A DNA stretch of 64,000 nt, from assembly GCF_053078305.1 (NCBI RefSeq), contig NZ_CP166879.1; one strand, written 5' to 3'. Position numbers and translations under genes: made by a program. Each line of letters starts with the position of its first letter. Within the stretch, counting starts at the first letter, position 1. Positions 10,216 through 17,668 of this stretch are shown piece by piece. The notes beneath the pieces were generated by a model. The model searched no databases, was not told where the DNA came from, and saw nothing but the letters and a program-made list of their open reading frames with translations.

Positions 10216-11292
10216 ATGAAATTGACGCTGAAAAACCTTAGCATGGCGATCATGATGAGCACTATAGTCATGGGAAGCAGTGCAATGGCGGCGGACAGCA
10301 ACGAAAAAATAGTCATCGCCCATCGCGGTGCCAGTGGATATTTGCCGGAGCATACGCTGCCAGCAAAAGCGATGGCGTATGCGCAGGGAGCGGATTATCT
10401 GGAACAGGATTTGGTGATGACCAAAGACGACCATCTGGTTGTTCTGCATGACCATTACCTCGATCGTGTTACTGATGTTGCCGATCGTTTCCCGGATCGG
10501 GCGCGCAAAGACGGTCGTTACTACGCGATAGATTTCACGCTGGATGAAATTAAGTCGTTGAAATTTACCGAAGGTTTCGATATTGAAAACGGTAAAAAAG
10601 TGCAGACTTATCCAGGGCGTTTCCCAATGGGTAAGTCCGACTTCCGGGTGCACACATTTGAAGAAGAGATTGAATTTGTTCAGGGGTTAAATCACTCTAC
10701 CGGGAAAAATATCGGTATCTATCCAGAAATCAAAGCGCCGTGGTTCCATCATCAGGAAGGGAAGGATATTGCGGCAAAAACGCTGGAAGTGCTGAAGAAA
10801 TATGGTTACACCGGTAAAGACGATAAAGTTTATTTGCAATGTTTTGATGCTGATGAGCTGAAGCGTATTAAGAATGAGCTGGAACCCAAAATGGGCATGG
10901 ATCTCAATCTGGTACAGCTGATTGCCTATACCGACTGGAATGAAACGCAGCAGAAACAGCCGGACGGAAGCTGGGTTAATTACAACTACGACTGGATGTT
11001 TAAGCCGGGTGCCATGAAACAGGTGGCGGAATATGCAGATGGTATTGGTCCGGATTACCATATGTTGATTGAGGAGACATCGCAGCCGGGTAATATCAAA
11101 CTCACTGGCATGGTGCAAGATGCTCAGCAGAACAAGCTGGTAGTGCATCCTTATACCGTGCGGTCAGATAAACTGCCTGAATACACAACTGATGTGAATC
11201 AGTTATATGATGCTCTGTATAACAAAGCGGGTGTAAATGGGTTGTTTACTGATTTCCCTGATAAAGCGGTTAAATTCCTTAATAAAGAGTAA
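10216..11292 (+). CDS. glpQ: periplasmic glycerophosphodiester phosphodiesterase
   Basis: ORF 10159..11292; start taken at ATG 10216 (MKLTLKNLSMAIMMSTIVMGSSAMA signal peptide, then HRGASGYLPEHT GDPD motif), 4 nt after the glpT stop. Confidence 0.93.
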   Translation: MKLTLKNLSMAIMMSTIVMGSSAMAADSNEKIVIAHRGASGYLPEHTLPAKAMAYAQGADYLEQDLVMTKDDHLVVLHDHYLDRVTDVADRFPDRARKDGRYYAIDFTLDEIKSLKFTEGFDIENGKKVQTYPGRFPMGKSDFRVHTFEEEIEFVQGLNHSTGKNIGIYPEIKAPWFHHQEGKDIAAKTLEVLKKYGYTGKDDKVYLQCFDADELKRIKNELEPKMGMDLNLVQLIAYTDWNETQQKQPDGSWVNYNYDWMFKPGAMKQVAEYADGIGPDYHMLIEETSQPGNIKLTGMVQDAQQNKLVVHPYTVRSDKLPEYTTDVNQLYDALYNKAGVNGLFTDFPDKAVKFLNKE

Positions 11293-11302
11293 TGCTGCTA
11301 CT

Positions 11303-11366
11303 GCAGGATGGCGTTCATGCGCCATCCTCTGCTAAAGCGAAATAATGCTACTACCGGTTATTCTTT
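11303..11366. terminator. two adjacent hairpins downstream of glpQ (AGGATGGCG/CGCCATCCT and ACCGGTTA/TAACCGGT); no strong U-tract
   Basis: Inverted repeats read directly. Position fits a glpTQ transcript end. Confidence 0.4.
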
Positions 11367-11515
11367 TCATTAACCGGTGCGTCCTGTAAAAAAGATGCCA
11401 ACATAATTTTCGTAAAACTCATTCGTTAAAAAAGCTAACACTGGGCATTGTTATTCTTTAAACAGTATGAATAGGTCTCAATAATAAATTGTAATGCAGT
11501 TTATACTGTAAAGTA

Positions 11516-12586
11516 TTATTCTAATTTCGGAAAGGTAAAGAAAATATTAATGTATCTTATTAATTTATCATATTGTTCTTGGGTGAATGCTGTTTGCACA
11601 CCTTCAGGGCAATATTTACCAGTAATAACCAGTTGCCCATTGCTGTGTTGTACCATTAAACCTTCTTTTTCCTTTGGATCTACAAACTTAGAATTATCAA
11701 ATGTGAAGATATTTTTTTCCTGTTTTGAGTAAGCAAAGAAATCTCGTGTATAGCTGAAACTATCATTTATTAATGGTGCTAACTTTTTGTCGGTGATATC
11801 GATAAGCTCACCACTTAATTTATTGATGTATTTCATTTGGTTCAATTTTTTCTGCGCTTGTACAATTTGCTTGTAGGTATTTTTAATTTCCTTAGAAGAA
11901 TTCTTGAATTTATCATAGCGTTCCTCGGAGGATGCGTATTTGTACCATTCTGTATTTTTTCTCAGAATGTAGTAGCAGGTCTGTATATTTTTTTGATCGC
12001 TGTAAAGTTGACTTTTAATACTTTCCTTACTGCTGGTTTTATAAGGTTTATCAGAGCTGTTTATTTTTGAAATGTCTTTTTCTGTCGGTGACTGGACCGT
12101 GTTGTGGATATTTTCTTTTATAACATGTTCATTGATGATGTTAATTGCAGTTTCATATTCATTTAAGTTTATTGTTCTTTGTGAAATAAACCCTTCTTTG
12201 CTTTCGACACTCAAAATACCTTCGTTGTTTTCACCTCGGGTAAAGGTAAGGGTATAGGGTTCATAATCCGCTGCAAATTCATTTTTATACGTTATGACAT
12301 GTTCGACAAAATGTCTTATTGGTACGAAACCATAACTGTGAACGTCAATTTTTTGGGTCTTGATACTATCAATTGCATCTGAGGCTTTCGTGAAAAAAGC
12401 CAATAAATTAGCTATGCTGTCTGTTGAGGTTGATAACCCGTATCTACTTTGAGATATTTTTAGAAACTCATCGCAAAAAAACTCAAGTTTGGCGGTTTGT
12501 TGTGATTCTTTGTAAATTTCTGCTGGTTGCAATTTATTATTTTGTAAAATATTATAGCGAGATAAGTGAATAGATGTATCTGGCAT
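11516..12586 (-). CDS. hypothetical protein, low-GC orphan gene (Lys/Asn/Ser-rich, no recognisable motif)
   Basis: ORF 11516..12622 begins on TTG. ATG at 12586 (MPDTSIHLSRYNILQ...) has an AAGGA RBS 9 nt upstream. Strongly AT-rich codon usage unlike the flanking genes. Confidence 0.55.
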   Translation of the reverse strand: MPDTSIHLSRYNILQNNKLQPAEIYKESQQTAKLEFFCDEFLKISQSRYGLSTSTDSIANLLAFFTKASDAIDSIKTQKIDVHSYGFVPIRHFVEHVITYKNEFAADYEPYTLTFTRGENNEGILSVESKEGFISQRTINLNEYETAINIINEHVIKENIHNTVQSPTEKDISKINSSDKPYKTSSKESIKSQLYSDQKNIQTCYYILRKNTEWYKYASSEERYDKFKNSSKEIKNTYKQIVQAQKKLNQMKYINKLSGELIDITDKKLAPLINDSFSYTRDFFAYSKQEKNIFTFDNSKFVDPKEKEGLMVQHSNGQLVITGKYCPEGVQTAFTQEQYDKLIRYINIFFTFPKLE

Positions 12587-13049
12587 AAATGATTCCTTGT
12601 ATTGTGAGTTAACAAGATACAATTTAATCTTTGCAGAATATATTCACTATCAAATTTAGCTCATTTTATTACGAAGACCTTTACGCATGTTAGAAAGTAT
12701 CATTATTGTTAATAAATACGGTAATAAGTAACAAACAGATATTGATAGCTTCCCTGACAAGTTATTAGGTATCCCACTTGAAGATTGAGAATGGCTCCAG
12801 AGTAAACTGTGTACTGTTCGCCGGAGTGTCATTACTCTCAACAATCGGATTTGACAGTGAGTCGGGCGCTTCATACCGGTTTCTACCTGGAGTCATTGTC
12901 ACTTCTCCCAACTGGATAAATATATCGCCAATTCACAAAGTGGGCCAAAATCAGGTGAAAACGAATTATTACGCCTGGTAAAGGCTATAGTACAACTAAG
13001 TGTGGCGAATCAGGCAGTCTTGCATTTGTCATCAATCTCATGTCTTACA

Positions 13050-13928
13050 TCAAATTTTTCCACTCACCACTAGTTGTTCCGTACACATTTGTAGTAAAAA
13101 CAGTGGACTGCCTTCTACCGGCTTTTCTTTAGCCAGCAACGAAATCTGTCGATAGAAGGTTGGTTCGAGAGGAACGGAACACAATTCATCTGCAATGGTT
13201 TTCAGCGTTAACTCTGGTAATAAGGCGATGCCTAATCCCTGTCGAATAAAACTGATCGCTGTATCCGGGTGATTAAATTCATATTTTATCTGTGGGGTAA
13301 TATTCTTTTCTTTAAATAGTGCCATAATGCTTAATTCATAGCGTCCTTTACTAATGATTAATGGTTCACCCATTAATTCTTCCACTGTAATAGTGCTGTT
13401 TTTTGCCAGAGCATGGTTGGGCGGTAACACTACGGTGAATTTATCCTGATAAATGGGCACGGAGTACATTCCGCTCACCGGAAAATGAACAAAACCGGCA
13501 TCAATGGATTCATTCTGAAGCGAATCAATAATCGCTGTGCTATTTTCCTCAAAAGGAATAATTTTTATATTCGGATGATGAATTTCAAAGTAGCGAATCA
13601 CAACCGGTAAGATACAGGCGCAGACGCTGGGGAAACAACCAAGTCTCAGCGTTCTTTGAGGGTTCTGCTTTTCCTGCTCGGCTATCTCTTTTACTGCGTT
13701 AACTTCCCGATTAATGGCGCGCAGATGTTGCACAATGCGATGACCTGCTGTGGTCAGTTGTATAGCTTTACGGCGATCGCGTAACAGTATATTCACACCA
13801 AGTTCTTGTTCGAGGGCAGCAATTGCCTGACTTACCGCCGACTGCGTCATGAACAATCGCTTGCTGGCTTCAGTAAAGCCACCGTAATCCAGCACGGCGA
13901 GTAAAGAATTTATTTGGGTAAGAGTCAT
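13050..13928 (-). CDS. LysR-family transcriptional regulator (intact)
   Basis: 292 aa. N-terminal HTH (LFMTQSAVSQAIAALEQELGVNILLRDRR) plus LysR substrate-binding domain. Divergent from the MFS gene at 14080. Confidence 0.85.
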   Translation of the reverse strand: MTLTQINSLLAVLDYGGFTEASKRLFMTQSAVSQAIAALEQELGVNILLRDRRKAIQLTTAGHRIVQHLRAINREVNAVKEIAEQEKQNPQRTLRLGCFPSVCACILPVVIRYFEIHHPNIKIIPFEENSTAIIDSLQNESIDAGFVHFPVSGMYSVPIYQDKFTVVLPPNHALAKNSTITVEELMGEPLIISKGRYELSIMALFKEKNITPQIKYEFNHPDTAISFIRQGLGIALLPELTLKTIADELCSVPLEPTFYRQISLLAKEKPVEGSPLFLLQMCTEQLVVSGKI

Positions 13929-14079
13929 TAGAGTTTGCTAATCAATAATATTAAAACGATTAATTTCTCTAATAGCATGCCGCCATTTATACTTCTGTTC
14001 TGCAAAGTACATCACAATTTGACGCAACCGCAGTAACGGGAGTGTTGTCTGCGTGCGTCATCCTGACAGGCGGTAGGGT

Positions 14080-15270
14080 ATGAAAGAGAAGTTATGGACG
14101 AAAGATTTTTGGGCAATCACCATTATTAGCTTTATTATCTTTTTCGTCTTTTATGTGTTGCTGACCTTATTACCTATTTATATCTCCGATCGTCTCCATG
14201 CATCCCCTGATAAAGCTGGTCTGCTGGTGACATTATTTTTAATTGCGGCGATTGTTATTCGACCCTTTGCCGGGCAATGGGTGGGTAAATATTCGAATAA
14301 AACTATTCTGGTGCTCTCTTCTCTGGCCTTTTTGGTGGTCACTGCGCTGTATCCTTTTTGCCACTCAATAGAATCACTGCTTTTTATTAGGGTGCTTCAT
14401 GGTATTACCTTCGGGGTTATCACAACGGTAAAGGGAACGATTTCCGCGCGGCTGATCCCGGCCTCCCGACGTGGGGAGGGCATCAGTTTTTTCTCTCTGG
14501 CAATGGGGCTGGCAATGGTGGTCGGGCCGTGGATTGGCCTGAATATGGCGCGCTGGGAGGCCTTTAATATGGCTTTCTGGTTATGTACTGGCGTTGCGGC
14601 GGTGGGGATTATCCTGTCGCTGATTATGACCGTGCCGCCGGTTATCAGCCATGCCGACGGTTCAAAGCCAAAGATGGGCTTCGCCGCCATGTTCGATCGC
14701 GCGGCGTTGCCATTTGCGATGGTCACCTTTTTTATGACCTTTTCGTATGCCGGGGTTTCTGCTTTTCTGGCGCTTTATGCTCGCGAACTTAACCTGATGT
14801 CGGCGGCCAGTAATTTCCTGCTTTGCTACGCCATCTTCCTGATGATCTGCCGTACCTTTACCGGCAATGTCTGCGACAAAAAAGGACCGAAATATGTGGT
14901 TTACCCTTGCCTTGTGTTCTTTACGGTAGGACTGGTGGTTCTCGGCTACACCCAGGGAAGCATAATGATGGTTGTTTCTGGCGCGTTGATTGGTATCGGG
15001 TATGGTTCCGTGACGCCAGTTTTTCAGACGCAGATTATCAGTTCAGTGGAACCCCATAAAATTGGTGTCGCAAACTCCCTCTTCTTCAATGCGATGGATG
15101 CAGGCCTGGCGCTGGGAGCCTGTGTGATGGGGATGATGGTTGCACATACTGGCTACCGAATGATTTATCTGCTGGGCGCACTATTAGTGGTAGTGGCTGG
15201 TGGAGTCTATGCGCTGCAAATGAAGGGTAAAAGCGGTGTCGTGCTAGTAGTGGCAAAAGAAATTCATTAA
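14080..15270 (+). CDS. MFS transporter (12-TM type)
   Basis: 396-aa highly hydrophobic ORF, divergently paired with the LysR regulator. Confidence 0.85.
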   Translation: MKEKLWTKDFWAITIISFIIFFVFYVLLTLLPIYISDRLHASPDKAGLLVTLFLIAAIVIRPFAGQWVGKYSNKTILVLSSLAFLVVTALYPFCHSIESLLFIRVLHGITFGVITTVKGTISARLIPASRRGEGISFFSLAMGLAMVVGPWIGLNMARWEAFNMAFWLCTGVAAVGIILSLIMTVPPVISHADGSKPKMGFAAMFDRAALPFAMVTFFMTFSYAGVSAFLALYARELNLMSAASNFLLCYAIFLMICRTFTGNVCDKKGPKYVVYPCLVFFTVGLVVLGYTQGSIMMVVSGALIGIGYGSVTPVFQTQIISSVEPHKIGVANSLFFNAMDAGLALGACVMGMMVAHTGYRMIYLLGALLVVVAGGVYALQMKGKSGVVLVVAKEIH

Positions 15271-15350
15271 TACGACACGTTTCATTAAGATTTTTCGCAG
15301 GTAACCACCTATAGTCATTGTCGTTAATAAAAAATGACAGGCGATAGGGT

Positions 15351-16001
15351 ATGGCAGTTTCAGCAAAGCACGACGAATTTAATCACTGGTGGGCAACAGA
15401 GGGCGACTGGGTTGAAGAGCCTAACTATCGCCGTAATGGTATGAGCGGGGTGCAATGCGTCGAGCGCAACGGCAAAAAGCTATATGTAAAGCGCATGACG
15501 CATCATCTGTTTCATTCCGTACGTTATCCTTTCGGCCGACCAACGATTGTCCGTGAGGTTGCGGTAATTAAAGAACTGGAACGGGCCGGTGTCATCGTGC
15601 CGAAGATCGTTTTTGGTGAAGCGGTGAAAATTGAGGGTGAATGGCGAGCGTTGCTGGTGACTGAAGATATGGCGGGGTTCATCAGCATTGCTGACTGGTA
15701 TGCCCAGCATGCAGTATCGCCTTATTCTGACGAAGTACGGCAAGCCATGTTGAAAGCAGTGGCGCTGGCGTTTAAGAAAATGCATAGCATTAATCGTCAG
15801 CATGGCTGTTGTTATGTTCGCCATATCTATGTGAAAACAGAAGGTAAGGCAGAAGCTGGTTTTCTTGACCTGGAGAAAAGTCGTCGCCGCTTGCGTCGCC
15901 ATAAAGCGATCAATCATGACTTCCGCCAGCTGGAAAAATATCTGGAGCCAATTCCCAAAGCGGACTGGGAGCAGGTAAAAGCGTATTACTACGCCATGTA
16001 A
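15351..16001 (+). CDS. inaA: acid-inducible Kdo/WaaP-family kinase-like protein
   Basis: 216-aa ORF (MAVSAKHDEFNHWWATEGDWVEEPNYRRNGMSGVQCVERNGKKLYVKR...). Confidence 0.9.
   Translation: MAVSAKHDEFNHWWATEGDWVEEPNYRRNGMSGVQCVERNGKKLYVKRMTHHLFHSVRYPFGRPTIVREVAVIKELERAGVIVPKIVFGEAVKIEGEWRALLVTEDMAGFISIADWYAQHAVSPYSDEVRQAMLKAVALAFKKMHSINRQHGCCYVRHIYVKTEGKAEAGFLDLEKSRRRLRRHKAINHDFRQLEKYLEPIPKADWEQVKAYYYAM

Positions 16002-17449: not shown

Positions 17450-17668
<219 letters not shown>

Follow-up and report, generated by a model that had tools for sequence, protein, structure and literature searches.

Is the interval between glpQ and inaA of the Escherichia coli chromosome a single horizontally acquired islet, or do its parts have separate origins? 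The question arises from a 64,000-nucleotide segment of an E. coli chromosome (contig NZ_CP166879.1 of assembly GCF_053078305.1; hereafter the window), in which the genes run in the order glpA (-), glpT, glpQ, a 356-amino-acid (aa) open reading frame (ORF; -), a LysR-type regulator gene (-), a major facilitator superfamily (MFS) transporter gene (+), inaA, yfaE (-), nrdB (-) and nrdA (-). The original prediction, made from the sequence alone, treated the ORF and the LysR/MFS pair as one AT-rich accessory islet and proposed a horizontal origin for the ORF and its flanks on account of their AT-richness. Our analysis upholds this origin for positions 11329-13037, on the grounds of composition and absence from outgroups, and contradicts an acquired origin of the LysR/MFS pair, which is syntenic in those outgroups. 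We therefore favour, at a probability of about 0.7, two histories at this locus: an ancestral LysR/MFS pair that was deleted in K-12, and a foreign AT-rich insertion with a weakly constrained orphan gene.

The base composition of the interval is far from uniform. In 300-nt windows, the guanine-plus-cytosine (GC) content is 0.30-0.34 from 11350 to 12850 and about 0.5 on either side (0.44-0.60 in glpT and glpQ, 0.47-0.59 from inaA to nrdA, and 0.498 over the whole window), in agreement with the strikingly AT-rich character predicted for 11340-13050. The ORF has a GC content of 0.325 and a GC content at third codon positions (GC3) of 0.314, as against GC3 values of 0.50-0.66 in the neighbouring genes. 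The LysR gene, with a GC content of 0.43 and a rather low GC3 of 0.40, and the MFS gene, with a GC content of 0.49, are not clearly atypical. Composition unlike that of the host, one hallmark of a genomic island, was thus found for 11329-13037 alone.

The limits of this segment could be placed to the nucleotide. BLAST alignments break at 11328|13038, and the identical junction is seen in empty-site strains of both the CS5L and the K-12 type, where GCGCCATCCT is joined directly to GTCT(C/T)A(T/C)ATCAAATTTT. The foot of the glpQ terminator hairpin on its LysR side is therefore the exact site of the segment. A second hallmark of an island, absence from the same site in sister species, was likewise found: the LysR-glpQ spacer measures 42 bp in E. 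albertii (hairpin included), 115 bp in Salmonella and 60 bp in Citrobacter, and tblastn detected no trace of the orphan gene at these three loci. Among 5426 complete E. coli genomes, our comparison set, the segment is strain-variable; it is present in 1052, chromosomal in every case, and absent from 81%. Taken together, these comparisons show what appears to be a true insertion, made within E. coli. Its ends carry no terminal inverted repeats, terminal direct repeats or target-site duplication, and no integrase, transposase or other mobility gene lies within it. Searches of phage, plasmid and IMG/VR collections (blastn, tblastn and scan) returned no DNA or protein relative; the sole plasmid match, PLSDB entry NZ_CP141089.1, is a 4.94-Mb E. 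coli replicon filed as a non-mobilizable plasmid and is evidently a mislabelled chromosome.

The segment may also have travelled within the species. Alleles that have diverged to 83% protein identity occupy the same site, and the leader upstream of the orphan gene (451 bp) is 96-99.6% identical between alleles. At 0.09-0.14, the synonymous divergence (dS) of the orphan gene relative to clade-I-type alleles is below the values for the flanking glpQ (0.39) and inaA (0.23) in the same genomes, which suggests that the segment moved between lineages after these had split, presumably by homologous recombination in the flanks. Two small ORFs in the leader, of 72 and 67 aa, were rejected as genes because other alleles do not keep them open. 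Downstream of the orphan gene, a hairpin at 11354-11379 was likewise rejected, since it is no better than shuffled sequence (z = -1.1) and lacks a U-tract.

Orphan genes of E. coli that are AT-rich and restricted to certain lineages are foreign DNA of a kind usually silenced by H-NS. The gene described here resembles them: its GC content is 32%, it occurs patchily, it has no homologues beyond the species, it is under weak purifying selection and it is often inactivated. It differs from them in being a single-gene insert that has neither a mobility gene nor end repeats. Given its composition, the segment may be transcriptionally silenced.

A serious rival to a functional orphan gene, although we consider it unlikely, is that the ORF is a spurious or non-functional relic, cargo left behind by a decayed mobile element that is drifting and on its way to being lost. 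For the coding tests, nine alleles were drawn from along the ranking by similarity. The alleles differ at 114 sites, and the 356-codon frame is intact in eight of the nine. Not one of at least 116 substitutions is a nonsense change; with about 4-6% of possible substitutions creating a stop, the neutral probability of this outcome is approximately 0.001-0.01, which argues against a relic in DNA of 32% GC. The other five frames of the stretch contain 16-42 stops each, with a longest open run of at most 72 codons. The good Shine-Dalgarno sequence also speaks against a relic. Substitution rates count on both sides. The ratio of nonsynonymous to synonymous divergence (dN/dS) is 0.44-0.75 in well-separated pairs, all below 1, and 1.3 in one very close pair, values that a relic could also produce. 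In the same genomes, dN/dS is 0.00-0.16 for glpT, glpQ, inaA and nrdB, and because of this difference the orphan gene appears to be under purifying selection several-fold weaker than that on its neighbours.

A derived double frameshift common to the window and O157:H7 bears on the same issue. An A8 run has become one A shorter and an A5 run 35 nt downstream one A longer, so that eleven codons (aa 199-210) are read in the other frame, as NIQTCYYILRK versus the ancestral KYTDLLLHSEK, with the remainder of the protein left intact. The ancestral frame is retained in every other allele, that of the clade-I type among them; strain EC1 is an example. That the -1 shift was restored after 35 nt and not left open also argues against a relic. 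The double frameshift also accounts for an observation that would seem to favour a relic, namely that many copies are flagged as frameshifted by the NCBI Prokaryotic Genome Annotation Pipeline (PGAP). The four non-O157 copies examined (L008-L011; for example, L008 3688-4758) are intact 356-aa ORFs, yet PGAP labels them as "frameshifted" pseudogenes. The label is an artefact: its reference protein is the O157 allele, and intact copies are called frameshifted because this reference itself carries the compensated double frameshift. If the artefact holds for all non-O157 alleles, several hundred complete genomes would be affected.

Genuine disruptions do occur, and they count in favour of a relic, as do the absence of the gene from most genomes and its lack of homologues and of a confident fold. 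The insertion sequence IS1 lies within the orphan gene in 9 of 40 evenly sampled carriers, and the clade I strain TW10509 has the gene at the same site with a +1 frameshift. In a group of human and environmental isolates (L012 4050-4747; H60-H69), IS1A/IS1B in the orphan gene is combined with the K-12-type LysR/MFS deletion; the matches of this group are very uniform, with 95.9% identity and the same length, and the isolates are probably one clonal lineage. Variation is also concentrated in one part of the gene, a hypervariable block in which 30 of 100 nt differ between two allele classes, compared with 0-9 per 100 nt in the remainder of the gene. Across aa 156-232, with dS at about 0.4 and dN at about 0.18, the pattern suggests that one allele is old or was imported, more than it does clear positive selection. 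Overall, the ORF appears to behave like a real gene under weak constraint, one that is dispensable and often decaying.

The LysR and MFS genes, by comparison, belong to well-known families and to a much older arrangement. As predicted, both are intact and divergent, encoding 292 and 396 aa, respectively, with a 151-bp shared promoter region between them. The regulator matches 58 NCBIfam LysR-family models over residues 1-270, and the expected make-up of a LysR-type regulator, an N-terminal HTH_1 domain (PF00126) and a substrate-binding domain (PF03466) in about 300 aa, is recorded for a protein 99% identical to it. The transporter, of about the 400 aa usual for the family, is assigned to the MFS by profile, with PRK05122 as its best MFS model in NCBIfam (residues 10-379, E = 3e-32). 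The order nrdA-nrdB-yfaE-MFS-LysR-glpQ-glpT-glpA recurs in E. albertii, Salmonella and Citrobacter, so that absence from the same site in sister species, seen for the orphan segment, does not apply to the pair. Identity of the LysR orthologues falls from 90% (E. albertii) through 81% (Salmonella enterica) and 76-78% (Citrobacter) to about 69% (Klebsiella), and those of the first three taxa are also 292 aa long. Identities in E. albertii, Salmonella and Citrobacter are 93, 86 and 87% for the MFS protein and 97, 90 and 87% for GlpQ. Because the pair occupies the same position in these taxa and its protein identity tracks species distance, it is, on present sequence comparisons, most plausibly an old enterobacterial module that was vertically inherited beside glpQ and not acquired.

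Within the shared promoter region lies a dyad, TAATC-N14-GATTA, which E. coli, E. albertii, Salmonella and Citrobacter all retain amid a spacer that varies elsewhere. The regulator may control the divergent MFS gene through this candidate site. The arrangement is that of other divergent LysR/MFS pairs in its orientation, its shared promoter with a dyad and its family domains, whereas the dyad spacing is not that of the classic T-N11-A box. In some E. coli strains the LysR protein is 299 instead of 292 aa long (L003 2991-3890), owing to the loss of one base from an A-run just before the stop, which extends the frame into the glpQ terminator hairpin.

In K-12, by contrast, the original prediction placed only a LysR-type pseudogene remnant, yfaH, at this position, and this is what we observed: the K-12 derivative MFDpir has a 243-nt LysR remnant and an MFS fragment at the locus. 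yfaH (b2238) corresponds to approximately the last 67 codons of the window LysR gene, which itself is complete, as in the outgroups; residues 226-292 of the window protein (the C-terminal 67 aa) match the YfaH model NF007272 with 145.4 bits against a cut-off of 139. K-12-type strains have a single copy of TTTATCTG, a direct repeat of which the window has one copy in each gene, and everything between the two repeats is gone, with both gene ends left and the BLAST segments overlapping by 13 nt. The K-12 state is a deletion of about 1.9 kb between the two TTTATCTG repeats, leaving yfaH, and the pair seems to have been lost by most E. coli.

The view that the whole interval is one horizontally acquired islet is, in the light of these data, very improbable. 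It would account for the absence or truncation of the interval in K-12 and most E. coli, for the rather low GC3 of the LysR gene and for the patchy distribution within E. coli, evident from our own counts and from published work (PMC10819331, section 3.5). However, the pair is at the identical position in three other taxa with identities that follow phylogeny, K-12 visibly carries a deletion between direct repeats with both gene ends remaining, and either the orphan segment or the pair can be present without the other. By approximate BLAST coverage class, at least 80% of the whole 4-kb interval is present in 710 of the 5426 genomes, and the LysR/MFS segment 13297-15163 is present in 1232. All four combinations of segment and pair are found in E. 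coli: the orphan gene with LysR and MFS genes in the window and in O157:H7 TW14359 (98.5% identical to the window across the interval), LysR and MFS genes without the orphan gene in strain CS5L, the orphan gene with a yfaH remnant in strains 700481 and 24A16CRGN010 and assembly GCA_012494665, and the yfaH remnant alone in the K-12 type, which accounts for roughly 60% of sampled rows. The absence is more extensive in B2 strains such as Nissle, whose glpQ-inaA spacing is only about 200 bp. In Nissle, 120 bp between glpQ and the inaA upstream region (L013 5898-6017) have no match to the window and contain the terminator hairpin in diverged form, CCGGATGGCAC..GTGCTATCCG. In 96 genomes the LysR/MFS segment is only 80-90% identical to that of the window (listed example: H82, NZ_CP065613.1), which indicates that the pair has a second, deeply diverged class of alleles; in one of these 96, IS4 breaks the MFS gene.

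The LysR/MFS pair itself is already known from published work. Wang et al. 2024 (PMC10819331) described O-island 97 of O157:H7 EDL933, which consists of the MFS gene z3494 and the LysR gene z3495; these are the same genes in the same place as the pair in the window, and the deletion and cloning primers of that study match window positions 13010-13049 and the 3' end of the LysR gene, so that the deletion in its delta-OI-97 and delta-z3495 constructs has one end at about 13049. The z3495 regulator was reported to raise expression of the enterocyte effacement locus (LEE) through rcsF in O157:H7, and deletion of z3494 gave no phenotype in the published assays (PMC10819331). That paper treats the pair as laterally acquired. 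This claim is contradicted by the synteny in E. albertii, Salmonella and Citrobacter, so the "island" would instead reflect the deletion in K-12. The adjacent orphan gene goes unmentioned in the paper; its product is annotated in TW14359 as the hypothetical protein WP_001301786.1, and we found no discussion of it in the searchable literature.

The orphan protein has a mass of 41.5 kDa, abounds in Lys, Ile, Ser, Glu and Asn and lacks any hydrophobic segment (highest 19-residue Kyte-Doolittle mean, 0.86). Residues 1-160 are acidic (isoelectric point, pI, 5.2), residues 160-260 basic and very hydrophilic (pI 9.6) and residues 260-356 again acidic (pI 5.8). The initial failure to recognise a motif was borne out: no family match was obtained in Pfam, NCBIfam, PHROGs, PADLOC or a PDB profile search, and the gene is a true orphan. 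Matches to TarA (15 bits), a valyl-tRNA synthetase arm and DUF7615 (both E ~0.2) were dismissed as noise. When 1.8 billion representative proteins were searched exhaustively with phmmer, no relative came up; the only matches were pieces of the gene itself, a single error-ridden copy (P0035) and two giant repetitive proteins, the last of which were rejected as relatives because they matched through composition. A scan of GTDB species genomes found none beyond E. coli and matched a single contig, JAIJJM010000334.1 (3474 bp), which is assigned to a metagenome-assembled genome of Collinsella sp., encodes the protein at 93% identity and is almost certainly a mis-binned E. coli contig. The 408-aa metagenomic protein P0023 (ENA), in which a nucleotidyltransferase-like N-terminal part (PF01467, PF05636) is fused to orphan residues ~14-137, probably arose as a chimera during assembly. 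Internal duplication between the N- and C-terminal parts lacks significance, with a Smith-Waterman score of 27 where shuffled sequences averaged 25.

One lead emerged by inspection. E128, S129 and K130 are invariant and D107 nearly so, and D107, E128 and K130 flank a predicted beta-hairpin; D107 with E128-S-K130 may thus resemble a PD-(D/E)xK signature, a resemblance for which no Pfam or PDB sequence match was found and for which the structural models are too poor for fold comparison. As a guess held with low confidence, the orphan could be a foreign conflict-type accessory gene, acting in phage exclusion or abortive infection or as a toxin-like protein, that is normally quiet because it is AT-rich. 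This guess draws on the foreign composition, the single-gene insertion, the patchy distribution, the variable linker and the frequent loss. We regard it as most doubtful that the protein is instead a secreted virulence factor, such as a type III secretion substrate contributing to the O157:H7 phenotype: its low GC content, like that of many effectors, its polar N-terminus, which abounds in Ser, Thr, Asn and Ile and lacks a signal peptide, and the presence of the gene in O157:H7 beside a regulator reported to affect LEE (PMC10819331) would fit, and sequence searches found no type III effector homology.

Several points weigh against the two-history account and the functional guess attached to it. 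A dN/dS near 0.5 with frequent disruption is equally expected of a slowly decaying relic. A single insertion, as opposed to an old E. coli-specific gene that was lost repeatedly, is argued from outgroup absence and lower dS and not from a full phylogeny, and the haplotype counts come from coverage classes and not from a curated pan-genome. H-NS silencing is assumed purely from composition. The conflict-type function has no direct support: no defence or mobility gene neighbours the orphan gene, and the protein matched none of the defence families of PADLOC-DB v2 at E <= 0.1. AlphaFold2 gave no usable structure, with a predicted local distance difference test score (pLDDT) of 40.4 for the full protein with 15 Escherichia sequences and 39.7 for residues 1-162; because both models are near 40, no fold comparison was justified.

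On balance, we propose that an old LysR/MFS module (13038-15270) would have descended vertically next to glpQ and would have been lost from most E. coli, in the K-12 type through the repeat-mediated deletion and in B2 strains such as Nissle with no pair left at all. In one E. coli lineage, 1.7 kb of foreign DNA (11329-13037) would have landed at the foot of the hairpin and then spread among lineages through homologous recombination in the flanks. It would encode one soluble protein with acidic ends and a basic hypervariable linker, its reading frame kept by weak purifying selection, dispensable and frequently decaying. Of this account, the composite history, the origin of yfaH by deletion, the point of insertion and the weakly constrained coding status of the orphan are shown by the comparisons; the spread through the flanks is an inference.

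Table 1. Coordinates of features between glpQ and inaA in the window, with the evidence for each.
Feature	Position	Strand	Evidence
glpQ terminator hairpin, AGGATGGCG-TTCAT-GCGCCATCCT	11305-11328		Sequence; also between glpQ and LysR gene in empty-site E. coli and E. albertii
AT-rich inserted segment, 1709 bp, one gene and a non-coding leader	11329-13037		Found in E. coli sensu lato only
Orphan ORF, 356 aa from ATG	11516-12586	-	AAGGA Shine-Dalgarno sequence 7 nt upstream of ATG
Compensated frameshift in orphan ORF	11960-11994	-	Nucleotide alignment of nine alleles
Hypervariable block, ~aa 158-191, basic hydrophilic linker, two allele classes	12014-12113	-	Allele comparison
Non-coding leader or spacer upstream of orphan gene, presumably with promoter	12587-13037	-	Small ORFs broken in other alleles
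LysR gene, 292 aa, intact	13050-13928	-	NCBIfam LysR models; PF00126 and PF03466 on the 99%-identical protein P0052
Direct repeat TTTATCTG, left copy, inside LysR gene	13285-13292		Junction sequences
Dyad TAATC-N14-GATTA in divergent LysR/MFS promoter region, candidate regulator site	13939-13962		Conserved across four genera; function inferred
MFS gene, 396 aa, intact	14080-15270	+	NCBIfam MFS models; PF07690 on orthologues
Direct repeat TTTATCTG, right copy, inside MFS gene, bounding the K-12-type deletion	15164-15171		Junction sequences

An Rfam search of 10800-15600 gave one sub-threshold chance match to a eukaryotic long non-coding RNA and nothing credible, and the number of sites detected in a scan for promoters and terminators did not exceed that in shuffled sequence. 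Beyond the MFS gene, inaA (window 15351-16001) is not at this place in Salmonella and Citrobacter, where yfaE directly abuts the MFS gene, and in an E. albertii strain it is reduced to a 46-aa C-terminal remnant (L014 4443-4658); its placement at this locus seems to be specific to Escherichia. Between nrdA and nrdB lies a cluster of repetitive extragenic palindrome/bacterial interspersed mosaic element (REP/BIME)-type repeats (GCCGGATAAGGCGTT...; window 17463-17667), which gives nrdB a spurious N-terminal extension in a mechanical ORF list. The length of this spacer varies between strains, from 146 to 234 bp at three E. coli loci (L001-L003).

In summary, what is new here is the polarity of O-island 97, which appears to be ancestral and deleted in K-12, together with the exact anatomy of the insertion beside it, the compensated frameshift with the annotation artefact that follows from it, and the estimates of selection. 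These are useful corrections rather than surprises, and they suggest no mechanism that would surprise a specialist. As a species-restricted gene under weak but measurable constraint, the orphan would be a reasonable candidate for accessory-gene screens in E. coli.

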